From Candidatus Saccharimonadia bacterium (GTDB lineage: Bacteria > Patescibacteriota > Saccharimonadia > UBA4664), in contig JBGTMQ010000017.1 in the NCBI GenBank assembly GCA_041743505.1, positions 15,680-79,679 on the forward strand: a stretch of 64,000 bases of DNA, read 5' to 3'. The notes beneath the pieces are model-generated. The model did not search any database, was not told where the DNA came from, and was given only the letters and a program-made list of their open reading frames with translations. Each line of letters opens with the position of its first letter. The first letter of the stretch is position 1. Shown here piece after piece: positions 2,532-43,145 of the stretch. The translations under genes were made by a program, and so were the position numbers.

Positions 2532-2574
2532 CCCGTTACGCTATTACTACAAGATAGTAACCGAACAGAAACCG

Positions 2575-2594
2575 TACTGTCAACTCCCCGGTAA
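2575..2594 (-). promoter_or_regulatory. recA promoter -35 region (cggggagTTGACAgtacgg on the minus strand), 17-nt spacer to a TTACTA -10 that overlaps a TTACTA-N5-TAGTAA palindrome
   Basis: TTGACA hexamer about 45 nt upstream of the recA start; the same 37-nt segment recurs at 4846-4882. Confidence 0.45.
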
Positions 2595-2648
2595 TTATCC
2601 CCTAGATACATAACACTTACCCTTACTCCCAACTGCTATAATTGGGCC

Positions 2649-2807
2649 ATGAGTGACATAGCCAAAAAGCCGGTTAAACCGGCTCAAGAAAAGCGCCCGC
2701 TAGGCTGGTCTGACCGCCCAGAGCGGGACAAGCTACCCCAAGACCGGGAGGATGCGAGGGAGTCTTTTGACGCGCTGTTGGATAAGGTGAGCAAACCCAA
2801 GAAATAA
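2649..2807 (+). CDS. candidate small ORF (52 aa, MSDIAKKPVKPAQEKRPLGWSDRPERDKLPQDREDARESFDALLDKVSKPKK), divergent from recA
   Basis: Clean ATG-to-TAA frame in the recA upstream gap; below the 60-aa cutoff of the ORF track; no RBS or homology support. Confidence 0.2.
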   Translation: MSDIAKKPVKPAQEKRPLGWSDRPERDKLPQDREDARESFDALLDKVSKPKK

Positions 2808-3016
2808 GCATTGGCAGTCTCTTGACCCGATTGCTAAAAGCGGCTATGCTCCAGGTAAGTCGTCGTGCCGGTTTGTCCCAGCACACGGCCCACGGTCAAC
2901 TAGCCGTGAGTAAAATCAAAGCCTTTAGGTAAGTTTGGGCGGGCTGGCGCTGCCAGTCGTTAAAAACTAGACCCGCACGGCGGTACGCGCCACCTTCCGA
3001 CAGTCACACTGGCGGG

Positions 3017-3205
3017 GTGGAGGGTAAAGGTTTGGGATACATTATTTTCCGACCCAACAGCAACCCCCAGCCGCGACGTAAAACTCCGGCCGAGAAAGAG
3101 CTGGAGGAGCAGCAACAAGCTGCTACGCTCGCCTATGTCCGGGAGCATTTTCAAAAGCTCCAACTACAAAAGGCTGACAACCATAAAGGTCGCAGCCCAG
3201 AGTAG
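3017..3205 (+). CDS. hypothetical small basic protein (62 aa)
   Basis: ORF followed 10 nt later by a clean intrinsic terminator hairpin. Confidence 0.3.
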   Translation: MEGKGLGYIIFRPNSNPQPRRKTPAEKELEEQQQAATLAYVREHFQKLQLQKADNHKGRSPE

Positions 3206-3215
3206 TGTCCCAGCA

Positions 3216-3244
3216 AACAGCACCTTCGGGTGCTGTTCCTTGTT
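3216..3244 (+). terminator. rho-independent terminator (AACAGCACC-TTCG-GGTGCTGTT then CCTTGTT)
   Basis: Perfect 9-bp stem with tetraloop followed by a T-rich run. Confidence 0.5.
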
Positions 3245-3296
3245 AAAAGACTATACCGCGTGCGCTTATTCGTCAATAGCACAAGCGTTATGCCTC

Positions 3297-3608
3297 TTAT
3301 GCTACTCTTTTTAGCAACAGTTCGAACATCGGCTCGTGACTCTTACGGTTCGAGTACCGCCAAGCGTATTCAGCCGCGTACAGGGGTAAATATCGCTTAT
3401 CGACATGCCGGTACACGGTAGTAATTCCATTCTTCAAAATAGACCAAAAGCCCTCTATGGTGTTGGTGTGGATCTCGCCCATAGTATAACGCTCAGAGTG
3501 GTTAATAGCGCTGTGTGGATAGCCGAGACGCGGCAAGACCTTATAAGCCAGCAATTGATCACTCATAACCCTAGAACCGCGTGAGACGTTAGCCTGGACG
3601 TGCGGCAT
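3297..3608 (-). pseudogene. IS1595-family (ISXO2-like DDE) transposase, C-terminal fragment only
   Basis: HTNTIEGFWSILKNGI...VYRHV...YLPLYAAEYAWRYSNR matches the conserved C-terminal block of IS1595 transposases; no N-terminal zinc-ribbon or DDE-N half is present upstream. Confidence 0.6.
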
Positions 3609-3749
3609 CAGCTCTGGCGCCGTAACGTGATCGACAACCGCTGTTCGAACTCGCCCAACCAGCGCTACGGCAGCATAGAAAATAAGCTGACCCTTACCGA
3701 AAACTAGAGCTGCAATCAGCCAATATGGTGACTTGAGCGGTGAGTGCGA

Positions 3750-4133
3750 TTAAGAATGTTTTTTTGAATGAAACCATTTCTTGCCAAGCACAACCCCGTA
3801 GGCGGTGAGTAAACTTATTAGAACAATGTCAAAAAATCGAATGTGGTTCCAATAATCAGTTGGCATAAAGCTTGCAAGAGTCCAGTTGGTAAATCGGATA
3901 TGCGCCATAATCAGGTAGTAAGAAGCGAGGCTGAATGCGATCCAAGCTAGCGGCGTGAACCACACTCTAATGTAGCCACGTTTGTAGACCTGTCGAGTGA
4001 TGTATAGCCCGGCCACTATCGCAGTGGCGTCGTGAAGTATGTACTGTCCGTGAACAAATACTAAGGCAGCTATCAGCCAATACGCTGTCTGGGCTATAAG
4101 CGCGATCAAGAATGTTTTTTTAAATGTGGTCAT
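3750..4133 (-). CDS. small polytopic membrane protein (about 4 TM), candidate immunity or partner of the upstream secreted protein
   Basis: 127-aa hydrophobic ORF directly downstream of and co-directional with the secreted Cys-rich protein; its N-terminal 20 codons are duplicated as a truncated copy at 3720-3777. Confidence 0.5.
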   Translation of the reverse strand: MTTFKKTFLIALIAQTAYWLIAALVFVHGQYILHDATAIVAGLYITRQVYKRGYIRVWFTPLAWIAFSLASYYLIMAHIRFTNWTLASFMPTDYWNHIRFFDIVLISLLTAYGVVLGKKWFHSKKHS

Positions 4134-4202
4134 AATAATTGCTTTATTTGGCGACGGAGGTTGGTAAGCCCTCCGCCGCCATATGTTACTACCGCGTTGC
4201 CG

Positions 4203-10934: not shown

Positions 10935-11257
10935 CAGCACGCCCACAAGGACGGAATCTACGGCAAACCAGCCGGCAGGTCTCCGTCCTTTTTATTTAGT
11001 GTATTTCTCAAACTAATAAGTTACAGAACCCGCCAGCCCGAAGGATGCTCTGCAAATAACCCCGATTGGCGCAGAGCTCCGGGACAAGAAAACCGTGATA
11101 GTAGATAGCCAAATAACTCTCAGCCTCATACCCGGCGACTACAAACATGTGCTACGCGAAGGAGGCACCATAGCCGGACTTAATCTTGCCAAACCCACTC
11201 ATGCTAAAGTGGAAAGCAGCCACCCCCGGCACCTGCCCCTCGACAAAGGAGTCCCCC

Positions 11258-11839
11258 TTGGACCTCACGGCACGTGCCTTTGCCAATGTCCTGATCGAGG
11301 CCAAAGTTTTTATGCAAGGTGATTTTGAACTCACCGATGGCAGCCACTCAAGTTTCTACATCAACTTTGGTGCAATCTGCCGGCCCAGCCACCTCAGTAT
11401 TCTTGGCCACTGTTTCGCCACCCAAATCATCCAGTCGGGGATCAAGCTTGACGTCGTCTATGGACCGGCCTACAAGGCCATCGCCATGGCCACCGAAACG
11501 GCCAAAGCCCTGTGGCAGGGCTACGGACTCGATATACCGTTCGCCAGCAGCCGCCGGGAAAAACGCAGCCACGGTATGAAGAATCCTCATCTCGGGGCAC
11601 CACTTCAAGACAAAAAAGTCGTCGTAGTCGACGATGTAGCCACCGGAGGCGATTCCAAACTGGACGCCTGTGAGTACGTCATGGACAAAGGCGGCACTGT
11701 CACGGGCTTTATCATTGGCGTTGACCGTACTCACAACCCGGCTGTCCTCGAGCAGCTCACAGCAAAGACGGGGGCACCCGTCTTTGTCATCATGCAACTA
11801 GAGGACCTTCAGCAGATCGCCGCCCAACATGTAGCATGA
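11258..11839 (+). CDS. pyrE: orotate phosphoribosyltransferase-like type-I PRTase
   Basis: Aligns with PyrE: GDFELTDGSHSSFYINF, VYGPAYKAIAMAT, PRPP-binding VVVVDDVATGG; TTG start 7 nt after the AAGGAG RBS. Confidence 0.55.
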   Translation: MDLTARAFANVLIEAKVFMQGDFELTDGSHSSFYINFGAICRPSHLSILGHCFATQIIQSGIKLDVVYGPAYKAIAMATETAKALWQGYGLDIPFASSRREKRSHGMKNPHLGAPLQDKKVVVVDDVATGGDSKLDACEYVMDKGGTVTGFIIGVDRTHNPAVLEQLTAKTGAPVFVIMQLEDLQQIAAQHVA

Positions 11840-11842
11840 CCA

Positions 11843-11872
11843 CTGTCCGGCCTTAGACCCCACCAAGGCCGG
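11843..11872 (+). terminator. intrinsic terminator (GTCCGGCCTT...AAGGCCGGAC then TTCAAACTTT)
   Basis: 10-bp GC-rich stem after the pyrE-like stop. Confidence 0.45.
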
Positions 11873-11948
11873 ACTTCAAACTTTCGAGCAATCCCTATGC
11901 TAAAGTAATAAAAGCCATCTGGCATCGCCCTTCGACAAAGGAGCCTTG

Positions 11949-12524
11949 ATGAATCTGGCAGATCATGCCTTTGCCAATGTGCTCATCCAATCCAATGCCT
12001 ACATGGAAGCTAGTCTCTCTGGTGGAGCTGGAACTTGTTTTATCCGTCGCCTCAATTTGGCCAAAATCCGCCGGCCTGAACACCTAGACACTCTGGCGAG
12101 CGGGTTCGCCCGGGCCATCATGCAGTCAAATGTGGCCTTCGATGTCATTTACGCCTTATCAGCCAAATCAATCCACTTGGCTGTCGCAACATCCCTTGCC
12201 ATCTGGCAGGGATATAATTTCAATAGACCCTTCGCCACCGCCAACATCACCACGTCTCTGGTCCCAAACAACCTCATCGGTGAGCCGCTCCGTCACAACA
12301 AGATCCTCATCTTGGACGACCCATCAGTTGACGACTATAGCGTCAGCGATGTCTGCCAACACATTCTGCAACATGACGGCACCGTCGCCGGTATCGTCAG
12401 CCCCGTGGAAGGCCTCCGGGATCCGGCAGTTCTACGCCAGATCGCTAACGACGCGGAACTGCCTGTCATTTCCGTAGTCCGCCTCGAAGAGCTTCGGAAA
12501 CTCGCCGGCTACCTCGCAGCCTAA
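11949..12524 (+). CDS. degenerate PyrE-like paralog (PRPP loop replaced by ILILDDPSVDD), probably a catalytically inactive pseudo-enzyme
   Basis: Collinear with the upstream PyrE-like gene, including a duplicated leader (atgctaaagt...cgacaaaggag); the Thr-Gly-Gly of the PRPP loop is lost. Confidence 0.5.
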   Translation: MNLADHAFANVLIQSNAYMEASLSGGAGTCFIRRLNLAKIRRPEHLDTLASGFARAIMQSNVAFDVIYALSAKSIHLAVATSLAIWQGYNFNRPFATANITTSLVPNNLIGEPLRHNKILILDDPSVDDYSVSDVCQHILQHDGTVAGIVSPVEGLRDPAVLRQIANDAELPVISVVRLEELRKLAGYLAA

Positions 12525-12526
12525 CA

Positions 12527-12566
12527 ACAATCCGGCCTTGGGTAACTCCAGGGCCGGATTTATTTG
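12527..12566 (+). terminator. intrinsic terminator (AATCCGGCCTTGG...CCAGGGCCGGATT then TATTTG)
   Basis: Stem-loop followed by a T-rich stretch. Confidence 0.45.
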
Positions 12567-12598
12567 ACTAATATAGTAAGCGCGCTTACTATATTACC

Positions 12599-13018
12599 AT
12601 GAAGATTATTGCCGCCGCCACTGCCATCACAACCGCCAAGCCTGGAACCGTTTTTCGTATCTGGTCCGACGTCGAACATTGGCCACTCTGGGATGTCGAA
12701 ATCACCTGGGCTAAATTAAACGGTCCTCACGCCGTCGGTACGACCGGCGCCTTAAAACCAGTTAACGGCCCCAGGACCAACTTCACCGTCATTGAAGTCA
12801 TCCAAAATCAATCCTTTACTGACGTCTCGCATCTGCCCGGCGCCAAGCTCCAATTCATACATCAGCTCGCCCAAACCGGCGATATGACCCAAGTCACTCA
12901 CACTGTATCAATCTCCGGGCCTTTAGCCTGGCTCTGGGAAAAGATCCTTGGCCACAATCTCCGCCGTGGCTTACAACCAGCCGTTCAAGGACTAATCAAG
13001 CTGGCAGAAAAAGCATGA
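12599..13018 (+). CDS. SRPBCC (START/Bet v1-like, polyketide-cyclase-type) family protein
   Basis: 139-aa; Trp-rich signature WSDVEHWPLWD typical of SRPBCC ligand-binding proteins. Confidence 0.5.
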   Translation: MKIIAAATAITTAKPGTVFRIWSDVEHWPLWDVEITWAKLNGPHAVGTTGALKPVNGPRTNFTVIEVIQNQSFTDVSHLPGAKLQFIHQLAQTGDMTQVTHTVSISGPLAWLWEKILGHNLRRGLQPAVQGLIKLAEKA

Positions 13019-13431
13019 AATATTGGATCGCCACCGTCTCCCACAACCACGTCAAACGTGGCCTGGAGCTTGGCGTCGCACAAATTGGCCATGGTAAACG
13101 CACCGGTCTGGCCCGCCTGCACGCCGGCGACTGGCTGGTCTACTACTCACCGCGCGAGAGTCCGGATGGCAACATCCCAGTCCAGGCCTTCACCGCCATC
13201 GGCCAAGTAGCCGGCGAAGCCATTTGGCAAGCCAATGAGGGCGATTTCAAGCCTTATCGCCGAAAGGTCAATTACGCTCGCGCCACCGACGCCACGATCC
13301 GTCCCTTATTAGAGCAGCTAAACTTCACCCAAGACAAAGCCAATTGGGGCTATGCCTTTCGCTATGGATTATTTGAAATCAATGAGCATGATTTCAGCCT
13401 CATTGCTCGTACCATGGACGTACAACCATGA
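13015..13431 (+). CDS. EVE (PUA-like) domain protein
   Basis: 138-aa; MKYWIATVSHNHV...GDWLVYY pattern resembles EVE/PUA-like proteins; ATGA overlap with both neighbours. Confidence 0.45.
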   Translation: MKYWIATVSHNHVKRGLELGVAQIGHGKRTGLARLHAGDWLVYYSPRESPDGNIPVQAFTAIGQVAGEAIWQANEGDFKPYRRKVNYARATDATIRPLLEQLNFTQDKANWGYAFRYGLFEINEHDFSLIARTMDVQP

Positions 13432-13895
13432 CAGCACACGATCCCGGCCTTAGCTCCGCTTACGACGCTCCTGAAGTCAGCCCGGGCTTCCTGCTCTGGC
13501 AGGTCACAAACCATTGGCAAGCCATGCAGCGGGCAGCCTTAAAGCCTTTCGGACTGACTCACGTACAGTTCGTCCTCCTGGCCTCACTGGTCTGGCTTGA
13601 AACTAATGACGAGCCCGTGACCCAAAAGTACCTGGCCGGGCATGCCGGCATCGATGTCATGATGACTTCACAAGTAGCCCGCACACTGGAGACAAAAGGC
13701 CTGATCAAGCGCTTACCGCATCCTAACGACCGGCGTGCCATCTTATTGACCGCTACCACGGAAGCAGTTGTCCTGGTCAATCAGGCCGTCCTTGCCGTAA
13801 AAAAAGTTGATCAACAGTTATTTGGTTATCTGGGCCACCGGCAAGATAATTTTATTGAAGCCTTGCAATTACTACGCGCAAATTTTAACTGCTAA
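13428..13895 (+). CDS. MarR-family transcriptional regulator
   Basis: Winged-helix segment VTQKYLAGHAGIDVMMTSQVARTLETKGLIKRLPHPNDRRA characteristic of MarR. Confidence 0.75.
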   Translation: MTAHDPGLSSAYDAPEVSPGFLLWQVTNHWQAMQRAALKPFGLTHVQFVLLASLVWLETNDEPVTQKYLAGHAGIDVMMTSQVARTLETKGLIKRLPHPNDRRAILLTATTEAVVLVNQAVLAVKKVDQQLFGYLGHRQDNFIEALQLLRANFNC

Positions 13896-14477: not shown

Positions 14478-14651
14478 ATCGGCCTCCCTTCCAAGGCGGA
14501 TACAAGATTACATCAGAATTTCTGAATAAGTATATTATACACCCAAATCCAATTTTGCGCAATACAAGGCTGCCTGTAAAATCGGCATTTTCACCGGAAC
14601 CATAAATGAACCAGCAAGACTGCGAACTCCGATCCATTGTATACTCCGGAC

Positions 14652-16091
14652 ATGAAAGTAGCATTTATCGTACCTTATGAAGGTAAAAAGGTTTACCAAC
14701 AAGCCTACGATCAAATCTTGTCCGCCATCGAGACCAATGGCGGTTTAGTTCTAAGTCCTGAAAAAACCGATGAGTATGGCCATGCCCTAGCCACCGGCCT
14801 TCCAACGCATGACCTATCACGCTCGCACTATGAATTTATTCGTAAAAGCATTATCGATAGCGACGTCGTCATTGTAGAAGCTAGCTATGAAGACTTTCGA
14901 GTAGGCCACGAAACCACACTGGCGCTAATTTATCGCAAGCCTGTATTAGTAATGGCCCAACATCTTGATTTCGGAAAATTTATATATCACCCCAACCTTA
15001 CCGGTATCCATTACTACCCAACACAAGTAGCACAAATAATTAAGGACTTCCTTGACGCTGCTATCAGTCAACCACAGCAGCACCCGCAAGCGCGCATCCC
15101 GAATACATACCATCAACCGTATAAACCGGTTCGAAAACCAAAAATCATTGCCGTATTTGGTGGCATTTACGCCGACATATTTAATAAAGTTAGTCGCATC
15201 CCCCGCGAAAATGAAGTCAGCTTGAGCAGTGATTTTAAAATCTCGCTTGGCGGTAAAGCAACAAATGCCGCCGTTGCCATGGCCCGCCTCGGGAATAAAG
15301 TCATCATGCTCGGCCAACTTGGCCACGACTCTACTGCCGTAGACTTAGAGGCTACATTAATTTATGAAAGTATTAATACGGATTTCATAAGCCGCAATTC
15401 TGCGCATCCAACCGGCACAGTAGTATTGGCAGTCGACAAAAATGCTCAGTACAGCACCGTAGTACACGAAGCAGCCAATATTCAGATTGAGCTGACACAT
15501 ATTGATAACTTTTTTAAAGAAATCGACCATAACACATTAAAGCTTGATTGCCTGTATCTGACTCTTGAGGCTCAACCCGCAGCTATCGATTATATTATTC
15601 GCGAAGCATGCAAGCGGAATATTTTTATCTTCTGCGACGCCGCTCCTCATGCCCGCCCACTTAACTCGCAACTCCTATCATTGATTAATATCATCGCACC
15701 CAACCAAATCGAGGCGGAAGCAATGACAGGTATAGTGGTCGATGATCAGGCGGCAGCTCATCAGGCAGCGATGGACTTGACCCGAAAAGGAGCTCGTCAA
15801 ACAATTATTACCCTGGGCGACCAGGGCGTCTATTGGAATTCTGCCGACAGCAACAGTTATTGTTTACCCGCATTACCGGTCAAAGCGATTGACGAAGCTG
15901 GAGCAGGAGATGCTTTCAGAGGAGCTTTCATCAGCGAACTGCTTTCCTCAAAAAATACTATCAATGCTCTCAGGTTCGGAATACGCGCCGGAGCATTTGC
16001 CGTAACTCGGTTTGGCAGCTACGATTCTATGCCAACTCATGACGAATTAGCCTTCTTTAAGCCAGCCAAGCATCAGCCAGAACAACCCTAA
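14652..16091 (+). CDS. fusion protein: N-terminal nucleoside 2-deoxyribosyltransferase-like domain plus C-terminal PfkB-family (ribokinase/adenosine-kinase-like) carbohydrate or nucleoside kinase
   Basis: N-domain DFRVGHETTLALIYRKPVLV (NDT-like D-x-G..E..KPV pattern); C-domain PfkB signatures GGKATNAAVAMARLG and DEAGAGDAFRGAF. Confidence 0.6.
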   Translation: MKVAFIVPYEGKKVYQQAYDQILSAIETNGGLVLSPEKTDEYGHALATGLPTHDLSRSHYEFIRKSIIDSDVVIVEASYEDFRVGHETTLALIYRKPVLVMAQHLDFGKFIYHPNLTGIHYYPTQVAQIIKDFLDAAISQPQQHPQARIPNTYHQPYKPVRKPKIIAVFGGIYADIFNKVSRIPRENEVSLSSDFKISLGGKATNAAVAMARLGNKVIMLGQLGHDSTAVDLEATLIYESINTDFISRNSAHPTGTVVLAVDKNAQYSTVVHEAANIQIELTHIDNFFKEIDHNTLKLDCLYLTLEAQPAAIDYIIREACKRNIFIFCDAAPHARPLNSQLLSLINIIAPNQIEAEAMTGIVVDDQAAAHQAAMDLTRKGARQTIITLGDQGVYWNSADSNSYCLPALPVKAIDEAGAGDAFRGAFISELLSSKNTINALRFGIRAGAFAVTRFGSYDSMPTHDELAFFKPAKHQPEQP

Positions 16092-39659: not shown

Positions 39660-40061
39660 TCAGCGAACACCTATTCGCCTCGAACACGTTGGCCACGCTT
39701 TCCAGCCTTGGCCTTTCTTGCCATCGTGCCCGTTAAGTATCCGTTGAGCAACGACAATCTGATTAGAGCGGGAAGTCTGGTTAGGGTAGGCCGCAAACTG
39801 GCGTCCCCCATAGTAATTCCAGGTCGACTTACTGATCTGGAGGCCACCATAATAGCCATTACCGGAATTAATCTTCCAGTTCCCGCTTGACTCACATCTA
39901 GCCAGGCGATCCCAGACAGAACTATTCCCGCCCGCCTGCGCTGTGTCATGCTTCGGCGCCGCCACTGCGGCAGCCGGAGATAGTGCCATAAGCGCAACCA
40001 CCAAAAGCGCGCTCACAACCACACCGACACCTGCGCGTAGAATTCGAAGCACGAGGTTCAC
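39660..40061 (-). CDS. resuscitation-promoting-factor-like secreted transglycosylase (Rpf domain)
   Basis: Signal peptide then WDRLARCESSGNWKINSGNGYYGGLQISKSTWNYYGG...GWKAWPTC, the Rpf/Transglycosylase-like signature. Confidence 0.7.
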   Translation of the reverse strand: MNLVLRILRAGVGVVVSALLVVALMALSPAAAVAAPKHDTAQAGGNSSVWDRLARCESSGNWKINSGNGYYGGLQISKSTWNYYGGRQFAAYPNQTSRSNQIVVAQRILNGHDGKKGQGWKAWPTCSRRIGVR

Positions 40062-40475: not shown

Positions 40476-41867
40476 CTACACTCTCGCCGGCTGCACCGTT
40501 TTCAATCGCGTACCTATATCAATCGGGTACACCCCGTCAAAGGATGAGGTATTAAGCTTAGACCGCGGCCAGCCGGTCGCCTTAATCATGCCGTCAAACG
40601 ACAAAAAACCCAGCGACTCAGCCCCAATATGCCGGCGTATGCCCTCAACATCCATCCGCGCCGCAATCAGGTCATTTTGGTTCGGCGTATTAATCCCATA
40701 AAAATCCGGATACCTGATCGGCGGCGAGCTTACTAGTACATGAACTTCGCGGGCCCCGGCCCCGTGCAACATGTGCACAATCTGGCCGGTAGTTGTGCCC
40801 CGGACTATTGAATCATCAATCACAATCACCCGCTTGCCCATAATAGCCTCGGGCACCGGGTTGAGCTTGGTCCGGACTTCACGGTCGCGCATCGATTGGG
40901 TCGGCCGGATAAATGTGCGGTGAATATAGCGGTTTTTAATGAATCCGTGGTCAAACCGCACCCCCGACTCCTCGGCATACCCCAGCGCCGCCGGAATCGC
41001 CGAATCCGGCACCGGCACCACCACATCTGCCGGGGTTGGATACTCCCGGGCCAAGGTCCGGCCTAGTTCACGGCGGACTTCATTAACCTTGCGCCCCATC
41101 ACCCGGCTATCCGGCCGTGCAAAATAGACGTACTCAAACACATCGAGCTTAGTCCGGCTCTTAGCCAACTGCCGCGAACTGACGCCCGCTGCACTCACAC
41201 TGAGCATCTCGCCCGGCTTAATGTCGCGCAAGAAGCCTGCGCCAATCGTGTCAAAGGCGCACGTTTCTGATGCCACGGCAAAGCCGTCGGCCAGGCTACC
41301 CAAAGACAGCGGCCGGATGCCACACTCATCGCGAAAAGCCACCAGCGTATCCTTAATCATCACCACGCATGAAAACGCCCCGGTAAACAGGGGCCAGGCC
41401 AGCTCCACTGCATTAGCCAATCCTCTACCTTCACGCACATACGAGCCAATAGCCGCCGCCATCATCTGAGAGTCGTTCAAACCGGTGCGAACAATACCGC
41501 GCTGACCCAGAAAAGCCTCTAGCGCCAAGGTGGAGGGCAAGTTGCCGTTATGAGCAAAAGCGATGCCCAACTCCTCGTCCACAATCGGTTGTAGGTTACC
41601 GATGTATCCTCCCGATGTCGCGTAACGGTTATGACCGATCGCCACCTGGCCTCGTAAGTGCTTCAAATCCTTCTCGCTATAAACATGCGCCACCAAACCT
41701 GTATCACTGTGGCTATATAATTTACGCCCGTCAGAACTCGCAATACCCGAACTCTCTTGCCCTCGGTGCTGCAACGCCCACAACCCGTAGTACACTAACC
41801 GCGACGCGTCCGCGCTGGCCGTAAAGACGCCCATGACGCCGCACTTTTCGCCTAATTCCTGATCCAC
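40476..41867 (-). CDS. purF: amidophosphoribosyltransferase (PurF, with propeptide before the catalytic Cys)
   Basis: CGVMGVF Ntn-hydrolase N-terminus after an 8-aa propeptide; PRTase domain with VIVIDDSIVRGTT. Confidence 0.9.
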   Translation of the reverse strand: MDQELGEKCGVMGVFTASADASRLVYYGLWALQHRGQESSGIASSDGRKLYSHSDTGLVAHVYSEKDLKHLRGQVAIGHNRYATSGGYIGNLQPIVDEELGIAFAHNGNLPSTLALEAFLGQRGIVRTGLNDSQMMAAAIGSYVREGRGLANAVELAWPLFTGAFSCVVMIKDTLVAFRDECGIRPLSLGSLADGFAVASETCAFDTIGAGFLRDIKPGEMLSVSAAGVSSRQLAKSRTKLDVFEYVYFARPDSRVMGRKVNEVRRELGRTLAREYPTPADVVVPVPDSAIPAALGYAEESGVRFDHGFIKNRYIHRTFIRPTQSMRDREVRTKLNPVPEAIMGKRVIVIDDSIVRGTTTGQIVHMLHGAGAREVHVLVSSPPIRYPDFYGINTPNQNDLIAARMDVEGIRRHIGAESLGFLSFDGMIKATGWPRSKLNTSSFDGVYPIDIGTRLKTVQPARV

Positions 41868-42332: not shown

Positions 42333-43145
42333 TCACCGGCGGGCCGCCCATGCGCACTCCCACGGCTGGAGGCCGCGCTTGTTGTACAGCATCTGAGCCC
42401 GCATGTCCTGCTCGGCCGGGCTGGCGTCAGCCGGATTGCCCTTGCCGCCCACACTACGCCACGTCGGCAGGTCAAACTGGTAAGCACCGTAGTGGCCATG
42501 CGGAGCGCGACTGCGGTAATTACCGCTCGACTCGCACTGGCGCAAGGCCGCCCAGTTAACGTTACCAGACATCCGGACATTACCCCGGGTCTTCGTCGAC
42601 GGCTTAGTCATGCTCTGGTGAGCCTGTAGCCTAACTTGACTACGCGGCTTAGTCTCCACCACCGGCTTCGGACCGGGGTCAGCGTCAGCCAGATGCTCTG
42701 ACCAAACAAACGCCCCATCCGGCAGCTTAAACCAATCCGGCTTACCCGTGCCGTAGGGATCCTGACCCTTCACCATGTCACCAACCGCAATCTTGTCCCG
42801 ATAGTTCAGTTGGCGCAGCGGCACATTGGCCGTGTTTGGCGCCAACCGGACATTGCGCGTGGATACTAGCACCCACTTTTCGCGTGGCACCACTACCGGC
42901 ACCGGAGGTTCCGCCGGAGTTACCGAAGCCAGAACCGGATTTGCGGGAGTCTGCGGCTGGTTAGCCGTTACGGTAGGGGTGGGGTTCGAGAATGCAGTGG
43001 CCTTACCGGCCACAACGCCGGCTACGTGCGGGTTCTGCTGGATGACAATGCCGGAGATAGCAAGTATGAGTATAATCACAGCGGCAATCCAATGCCGCGC
43101 CTTAAAGCGCCTCAACACTTGCCCGTATCGTTCGGCTCTCATCAT
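42333..43145 (-). CDS. Rpf-like transglycosylase with N-terminal TM and Pro-rich linker (RpfB-like)
   Basis: C-terminal NWAALRQCESSGNYRSRAPHGHYGAYQFDLPTWRSVGG...PWECA Rpf domain. Confidence 0.6.
   Translation of the reverse strand: MMRAERYGQVLRRFKARHWIAAVIILILAISGIVIQQNPHVAGVVAGKATAFSNPTPTVTANQPQTPANPVLASVTPAEPPVPVVVPREKWVLVSTRNVRLAPNTANVPLRQLNYRDKIAVGDMVKGQDPYGTGKPDWFKLPDGAFVWSEHLADADPGPKPVVETKPRSQVRLQAHQSMTKPSTKTRGNVRMSGNVNWAALRQCESSGNYRSRAPHGHYGAYQFDLPTWRSVGGKGNPADASPAEQDMRAQMLYNKRGLQPWECAWAARR

Follow-up and report, generated by a model that had tools for sequence, protein, structure and literature searches.

Why should a bacterium keep, next to its gene for orotate phosphoribosyltransferase (OPRTase, PyrE), a second copy of that gene that seems to have lost the active site? 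The question is raised by a tandem gene pair in a 64,000-nucleotide stretch of DNA from a Candidatus Saccharimonadia bacterium (GenBank assembly GCA_041743505.1, contig JBGTMQ010000017.1, positions 15,680 to 79,679), here called the window. According to the original prediction, made from the sequence alone, a PyrE-like phosphoribosyltransferase (PRT) gene had been duplicated there together with its leader, and the second copy, catalytically degenerate, had been retained for another role. The two genes are:

11258..11839, + strand: gene 1, orotate phosphoribosyltransferase (PyrE), 193 aa, TTG start
11949..12524, + strand: gene 2, catalytically degenerate OPRTase paralog (putative pseudo-enzyme), 191 aa

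Gene 2 has lost the defining residues of OPRTase

Open reading frames (ORFs) of these extents are present on the + strand, and their products align throughout (BLASTP: 35% identity over 190 aa, end to end, E=1e-41). The product of gene 1 passes the curated cut-off of TIGR00336 (115 bits vs. 106.8), matches PF00156 (Pribosyltran; 38.4 vs. 26.3), and aligns in the PDB with the OPRTases of E. coli and Salmonella (E=1e-27, 155-180 residues aligned). With the canonical PyrE P0024, whose numbering is the same as in E. coli, taken as a residue ruler, gene 1 retains Y72, K73, R99, H105, D124, D125, T128, G130 and R156, and is substituted at six positions (K26T, K100R, K103R, A129G, T131D and A132S). 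The sequence VVVVDDVATGGDS is present in gene 1, and ILILDDPSVDDYS is present in gene 2.

With TIGR00336, gene 2 reaches 34.3 bits and fails the cut-off of 106.8, and in Pfam it has no match, PF00156 being absent at E<=1. On the same ruler it carries the changes K26G, Y72A, K100A, K103T, H105S, T128V and G130D, R99 is deleted, and R156 has no aligned residue, so that just K73 and the DD pair (D124/D125) are left of the positions checked. The phosphoribosyl pyrophosphate (PRPP) motif, which combines the DD pair with a T-A-G-T 5-phosphate loop, fails in gene 2, where it reads LDDPSVDDYS. Thus, nearly every defining OPRTase position is lost, and the catalytic degeneracy that had been claimed for the second copy stands. 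Hidden Markov models (HMMs) of the GfcR, PurR and PyrR families left gene 2 unmatched; for the GfcR/PurR type, gene 1 reached 21.9 bits against a 300-bit cut-off. Gene 2 has the same length as gene 1, with no additional N-terminal domain and no helix-turn-helix (HTH).

We predict that gene 2 keeps the OPRTase (type I PRT) fold around a dismantled active site, because its AlphaFold2 (AF2) model is confident (predicted local distance difference test, pLDDT, 85; predicted template modelling score, pTM, 0.83) and its structural matches are OPRTases. All of the top 39 Foldseek matches of the model in the PDB are OPRTases or UMP synthase (best TM 0.76-0.79), and it superposes on the E. coli and Salmonella PyrE structures (PDB 1ORO, 1LH0) at TM 0.76-0.78. 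Both window proteins differ from these enzymes in lacking the C-terminal helix of about 20 aa, and gene 1 differs from them also by K26T, K103R and a TGGDS phosphate loop. Gene 2 is a natural counterpart of the engineered inactive subunit iOPRT (R99G/K100S/K103S/H105G with D124N/D125N), but its losses arose naturally, go further and have been maintained in evolution.

An intact counterpart of gene 2 occupies the same position in a second organism

When 1.84 billion representative proteins were scanned in full by HMMER with gene 2 as query, gene 1 (E=6e-28) and a protein designated P0003 (E=5e-22) were found, after which the E-value rose to 5e-7. Word-indexed protein searches with each gene returned nothing beyond the genes themselves, and two scans of genome contigs and a metagenome scan with gene 1 gave no match. 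P0003 is encoded on L003, a 1,337-bp ENA metagenome contig of 2x coverage. This contig begins with the end of a gene-1 ortholog, its final 66 codons (ATGGDSKLDACEYV...), which share 80% identity with window gene 1. Then come, in this order, the same hairpin as that following gene 1, CATGCTAAAGT, GCCCCTCGACAAAGGAG, P0003, a hairpin like that of gene 2, the same palindromic promoter as in the window, and the EVE-domain gene that the window, too, has downstream. The start codon of P0003 is probably TTG 312. The next-nearest proteins, P0023 and P0024, were considered as further dead-copy loci and rejected, since both are ordinary single-copy PyrE proteins with no dead partner.

P0003 (188 aa) has degenerated further than gene 2: in place of the PRPP motif it has LLNKLDSTG, and D124/D125 have become N and K, so that the DD pair is lost as well. 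The basic catalytic loop (R99, K100, K103, H105), Y72 and R156 are gone in gene 2 and P0003 alike, and the pocket residues that the two proteins have in common amount to almost none, K73 only. The AF2 model of P0003 is again confident (pLDDT 88.7). Stops or frameshifts in gene 2 of related strains had been named in the original prediction as the sign of a simple pseudogene; there are none in P0003, which represents one related organism. Neither of the dead copies is nearer to gene 1 of its own genome. This comparison and the parsimony analysis given below, together with the orthologous flanks, date the duplication to a time before the two organisms split.

Two side observations concern the distal part of the contig. 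In L003 (954..1259, corresponding to window 13015..13431) the EVE gene stands directly after the dead PRT copy, and the SRPBCC gene of the window is absent. Additionally, the L003 EVE gene is seemingly frameshifted after about 75 codons, possibly by an error on this 2x-coverage contig.

Gene 2 evolves fast but appears to be constrained

Between the window and L003, synonymous sites are saturated (synonymous rate, dS, 1.1-1.8), which makes the ratios of non-synonymous (dN) to synonymous rates rough. With this limit, dN/dS is 0.06 for the C-terminus of gene 1 (80% aa identity), 0.11 for the N-terminus of the EVE protein (77%), and about 0.42 for gene 2 and P0003 (33%, dN 0.65); the non-synonymous rate of gene 2 is about 6 times that of gene 1. 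The two intergenic regions are 77% and 80% identical in nucleotides, far above synonymous conservation, a sign that purifying selection acts on the hairpins, on the promoter-like blocks and on the 5' untranslated region (5'UTR). In a neutral, substitution-only simulation at 49% divergence, the frame of gene 2 stayed open in 0.5% of trials. As neutral survival of the frame is so rare, the dead copy is best described as fast-evolving yet constrained. The claim that gene 2 was retained rather than left to decay is borne out by the same figure and by the intact counterpart at the same position, P0003, which has persisted in spite of saturation at synonymous sites. We are much surer of a dead and retained gene 2 than of any step from there to a partner or modulator function.

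The duplicated unit includes expression signals

The tandem unit measures about 691-696 nt and includes, besides the genes, the following non-coding signals:

11166..11181, + strand: upstream block CACCATAGCCGGACTT, copy 1 (repeat D4, 88% identity, spacing 695 nt)
11201..11210, + strand: ATGCTAAAGT copy 1, putative extended -10 (TGnTAAAGT) of gene 1 (exact repeat D10, spacing 696 nt)
11235..11251, + strand: GCCCCTCGACAAAGGAG copy 1, 5'UTR block ending in the Shine-Dalgarno sequence AAAGGAG (repeat D2, 94% identity, spacing 692 nt)
11845..11874, + strand: hairpin after gene 1 (10-bp stem, inverted repeat I8, dG -19 kcal/mol, z -3.7)
11897..11906, + strand: ATGCTAAAGT copy 2, putative extended -10 of gene 2, identical in L003 upstream of P0003
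11927..11943, + strand: GCCCTTCGACAAAGGAG copy 2, 5'UTR block with the Shine-Dalgarno sequence of gene 2 (repeat D2; conserved in L003)
12529..12560, + strand: hairpin after gene 2 (inverted repeat I4, dG -24.8 kcal/mol, z -5.4)

The start-to-start distances of the four independent direct repeats D1, D2, D4 and D10 equal the spacing of the genes. The blocks in register are CACCAnnGCCGGACTT (11166/11861), ATGCTAAAGT (11201/11897), GCCCnTCGACAAAGGAG (11235/11927) and the first 44 coding nucleotides. Within the window there are exactly two occurrences each of ATGCTAAAGT (11201 and 11897) and of TCGACAAAGGAG (11240 and 11932), the two motifs being 30 nt apart in front of gene 1 and 26 nt apart in front of gene 2. 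By themselves these two-fold counts are within chance; the register of the repeats is beyond it. The leader was thus duplicated with the gene, its signals recurring in register every 691-696 nt, as had been proposed. An alignment of the leaders of window gene 1, window gene 2 and the L003 gene 2 counterpart has 56 invariant positions in about 100 columns.

From the sequence pattern, TGCTAAAGT is probably an extended -10 element and AAAGGAG a Shine-Dalgarno sequence, the two separated by a conserved 5'UTR of some 30 nt; a two-hexamer promoter scan did not call the ATGCTAAAGT element. The conserved GCCGGACTT(n)AAnCTT block further upstream could be an operator. Sigma-54 and extracytoplasmic function (ECF) promoter readings, tried by eye, were a misfit and did not hold in all three copies. 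The leader pattern also turned up at 5 loci in JGI metagenomes; these represent 3 distinct sequences, all inside unrelated coding DNA, and were dismissed as chance. The 212-aa database form of gene 1, P0002, begins at an ATG within the ATGCTAAAGT motif (window 11201..11257). This ATG was rejected as a start codon or upstream ORF, since no Shine-Dalgarno sequence stands ahead of it and its frame meets a stop after 3 codons at gene 2 and after 5 in L003. For this reason P0002 is probably over-extended, and TTG 11258, which has a Shine-Dalgarno sequence 6 nt upstream and is aligned with the start of gene 2, is the likelier start of gene 1.

A comparison of the leader with PyrR-binding attenuators had been proposed as well, and it came out against such a likeness. 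Both leaders fold no better than shuffled sequence (z -0.03 and -0.79), and a riboswitch or attenuator reading was dropped on that ground. Rfam yielded only chance eukaryotic matches and no PyrR motif for the locus at E<=10, and neither PyrR nor any other leader family for the whole window at gathering thresholds. In appearance, the leader is closer to an extended -10 followed by a short conserved 5'UTR and a Shine-Dalgarno sequence than to a folded, PyrR-type attenuator.

Each gene was also said to be followed by its own terminator, which holds in part. A strong hairpin does follow each gene, and both hairpins are conserved in L003. That of gene 2, which resembles the gene-1 hairpin (I1), is followed by AUUUAUUUG, has a U-rich tail, and is likely an intrinsic terminator. 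The hairpin after gene 1 has no such tail and no U-run (ACUUCAAACUUUC), so that for gene 1 a terminator of its own is only partly shown. Neither hairpin was called by a consensus terminator scan. The 3' arm of the gene-1 hairpin overlaps D4 copy 2 (11861..11876), and D4 copy 1 is in register with this arm and invariant in the three-way alignment with L003.

A third, decayed copy lies upstream of gene 1

The + strand carries a further piece of the family right in front of gene 1:

11053..11184 (approximately), + strand: remnant of a third PRT copy, family positions 106-150, truncated at both ends

The remnant reads IGAELRDKKTVIVD...REGGTIAGL, given also as ...LRDKKTVIVD...REGGTIAGL. Besides the two genes, it was the best match of a family HMM to the six-frame translation of the window (E=0.0023, next best E=1.7), and tblastn with gene 1 detected it as well (E=0.005). 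It lies about 167 nt out of register, an offset that fits an internal deletion joining approximately codon 151 to the 3' arm of a former hairpin (D4). The array thus comprised at least three units at one time. The remnant is truncated, as expected of a simple pseudogene; gene 2 and P0003 show no stop, frameshift or truncation. As the remnant demonstrates, decay does occur at this PyrE array as well.

Gene 2 as a possible non-catalytic partner of gene 1

What might a dead PyrE be retained for? We tentatively favour the view, to which we give somewhat less than an even chance, that selection has kept gene 2 as a non-catalytic partner which, by pairing with gene 1, reduces or buffers the activity of the latter. 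The locus would then be a tandem promoter-gene-hairpin array derived from one pyrE, with a decayed fragment, an active-looking gene 1 and a dead gene 2, and both genes, driven by the same extended -10 and short conserved 5'UTR, would be co-regulated. The OPRTase dimer has two active sites to which both subunits contribute, one giving the groove and the other, in trans, the catalytic loop (bioRxiv 10.1101/2025.01.14.632917), and gene 2 appears to lack groove and loop alike. Since the sites are shared between subunits, a gene 1:gene 2 heterodimer should be inactive: it would contain no complete site, and gene 2 would serve as an inherent negative modulator that 'poisons' or buffers OPRTase activity. 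A heterodimer of wild-type E. coli OPRT with a loop-and-groove mutant is described as inactive in the same source (bioRxiv 10.1101/2025.01.14.632917, citing Ozturk et al. 1995). If gene 2 pairs with gene 1, nothing more would be required of its product than to fold and to preserve the alpha2/alpha3 dimer surface.

The pattern of conservation is consistent with this. Gene 2 and P0003 are 50% identical at residues 40-98 (alpha2/alpha3) and 25% identical in the rest of the protein (Fisher p=0.001), whereas gene 1 and canonical PyrE show no such enrichment (36% vs. 32%). Likewise, 8 of the 13 clade-specific invariant residues fall at positions 40-89 (I40, R42, P43, H45, F53, Q59, W86 and Y89). In E. 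coli OPRT, residues 44 and 92 were disulfide-linked across the dimer interface (bioRxiv 10.1101/2025.01.14.632917), and the conserved positions of the dead copies in this block lie close to them; we infer that alpha2/alpha3 form the dimer interface. A stronger version, in which gene 2 is a natural 'anti-enzyme', a dominant-negative OPRTase subunit, co-regulated with the enzyme by way of the duplicated leader, that throttles orotidine monophosphate (OMP) synthesis by tying up active subunits in heterodimers without a complete site, with pairing perhaps tuned by a metabolite, seems unlikely to us.

Several points weigh against pairing with gene 1, or against the comparison on which it draws. The putative pairing is read from a single pattern, the enrichment of conservation at alpha2/alpha3, and these helices also pack on the core, so that their conservation may reflect folding and not an interface. 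An enzyme and its own poison made from identical promoters would be an odd design, unless pairing is conditional. The activity of gene 1 is itself not certain, because it deviates from canonical PyrE at K26T, K103R and T131D. Moreover, the evidence comes from two organisms only, one of them represented by a contig of 2x coverage, and the dN/dS values are rough, as said above. By parsimony, gene 2 and P0003 do not group specifically with each other (counts 10, 14 and 11, star-like), and for this reason their orthology rests on position and flanking DNA.

Gene 2 might also work independently of gene 1, for instance as a homodimeric ligand sensor or regulator, and might act on the shared leader. 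PyrR, PurR and GfcR are PRT-fold proteins that have turned into regulators. Such enzyme-derived regulators are documented, GfcR (formerly PyrE1) being an inactive OPRT-like one (PMC10838023), gene 2 owns a copy of the expression signals, and conservation of the leader blocks far exceeds that of synonymous sites, so that something presumably binds or reads these blocks. On the other hand, gene 2 has neither an HTH nor any added domain at a length like that of gene 1, and since hardly a pocket residue other than K73 is common to gene 2 and P0003, a conserved ligand site is not apparent. Both proteins are acidic (pI 6.0 and 5.25), and the GfcR/PyrR family matches, PyrR-type RNA motif and significant leader fold that a regulator of the known kinds would lead one to expect were not found in the searches described, which makes this role somewhat unlikely. 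A new enzyme, with another substrate or chemistry in a remodelled pocket, would suit the versatility of PRT folds and the D124/D125 pair and K73 kept by window gene 2. It is highly improbable all the same, as the DD motif has turned into N and K in P0003, both dead copies are without 5-phosphate loop, catalytic loop and R156, and no alternative conserved set of polar pocket residues emerges.

Could gene 2, instead of lowering the activity of gene 1, activate or stabilise it like a prozyme or scaffold? The prozymes of trypanosomatids are dead paralogs that activate their partners, according to references cited in PMC8836349, and HisZ, an inactive HisRS paralog, activates HisG (PMC10795190); moreover, co-expression from identical signals suits an obligate partner better than a poison. 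We hold this to be quite unlikely, since an OPRTase subunit contributes its catalytic loop in trans and gene 2 is devoid of a basic loop, and since the analogous E. coli heterodimer is inactive (bioRxiv 10.1101/2025.01.14.632917). Finally, gene 2 could be a non-functional duplicate heading to loss, its open frame a leftover. One copy at this locus, the third, is clearly decayed, gene 2 evolves about 6 times faster than gene 1 and has no Pfam match, and P0003 is without the DD motif. But near-equal intact ORFs (191 and 188 aa) persist in two lineages at dS above 1.5, a neutral frame would remain open in 0.5% of trials even before indels are counted, dN, at 0.65, stays far under dS, the fold of both proteins is predicted with confidence, and the promoter, Shine-Dalgarno sequence and hairpin of the dead copy are 77-80% conserved, all of which renders mere decay very unlikely. 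Taken together, gene 2 may have a regulatory or binding-subunit role, as suggested originally, in our preferred reading that of a non-catalytic partner of gene 1.

Genomic context of the pair

The original prediction had noted that no pyr operon adjoins the pair, and in agreement with that, there was no pyr gene among the approximately 50 window ORFs scanned with Pfam and NCBIfam, smaller ORFs being left out. The window carries the housekeeping genes recX, recA, a HelD-like helicase gene, YajQ, a RodZ-like gene, FtsK, RNase J, PNPase, TruB, S20, holA, fpg, polA, purF, rpoD, dnaG and PGI/PMI; FtsK, PNPase, an RlmA-type methyltransferase and UDG were identified from precomputed Pfam annotation. 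PADLOC gave no link to a defence system.

Behind the gene-2 hairpin, at 12569..12596, a perfect 28-bp palindrome (TAATATAGTAAGCG/CGCTTACTATATTA) is placed between a -35 TTGACT and a -10 TACTAT. It precedes an SRPBCC-EVE-MarR operon (12599..13895), is largely conserved in L003, and is probably the MarR operator. Further downstream, 14637..16091 (+ strand) encodes a ribokinase-like PfkB protein, which scores 227.7 bits with TIGR02152, below the 299.65-bit cut-off, and has an N-terminal domain of about 170 aa without a Pfam match. Two resuscitation-promoting-factor-like genes (39660..40061 and 42333..43145, - strand) flank purF (40476..41867). On the other side of the pair, a 103-aa ORF at 3297..3608 (- strand), ending in ...HTNTIEGFWSILKNG..., resembles a C-terminal piece of an IS1595-type transposase, and the surrounding 1.6 kb (2532..4160), with short ORFs only, may be a degraded mobile element. 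GC skew is strongly negative on the + strand across the entire window.

Relation to known PRT paralogs and meaning of the finding

Inactive PRT paralogs are already known, namely the eukaryotic APRT2 and APT2 and the HTH-fused regulators GfcR and PurR. The pairs APRT1/APRT2 of T. brucei and APT1/APT2 of yeast are likewise PRT paralogs of which only one is catalytically active, and the trypanosome pair is in tandem (PMC8836349); they differ from the pair described here in being eukaryotic, in using adenine and not orotate, in that their proteins reside in different compartments, and in having no shared conserved leader. GfcR of Haloferax volcanii, PurR and PyrR are, like gene 2, inactive or repurposed PRT-fold proteins derived from enzymes of nucleotide synthesis, and GfcR is OPRT-like and coexists with an active PyrE2 (PMC10838023). 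However, GfcR and PurR have an HTH at their N-terminus, and a defined RNA motif is bound by PyrR, whereas gene 2 shows neither an extra domain nor a family match nor a PyrR-type leader. Trypanosomatid prozymes and HisZ/HisG share with the proposed partnership a dead paralog kept to modulate an active enzyme through a hetero-oligomer, but there the effect is activation, whereas for gene 2, if it pairs, the shared-site geometry of OPRTase predicts inhibition.

We found no description, in the literature and databases searched, of a bacterial, domain-for-domain dead PyrE that is kept next to a live gene and has its control signals duplicated as well. With 3 proteins in about 15 billion, the family is extremely rare, and its host is uncultured, both of which limit the reach of the finding. 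The shared-site geometry leads to a sharp prediction: on mixing of the two proteins, activity should fall toward zero when pairing occurs. If true, the locus would be a natural example of the control of an enzyme by a poison subunit. It also presents three fates of a duplicate side by side, one copy conserved, one repurposed or relaxed, and one decayed.

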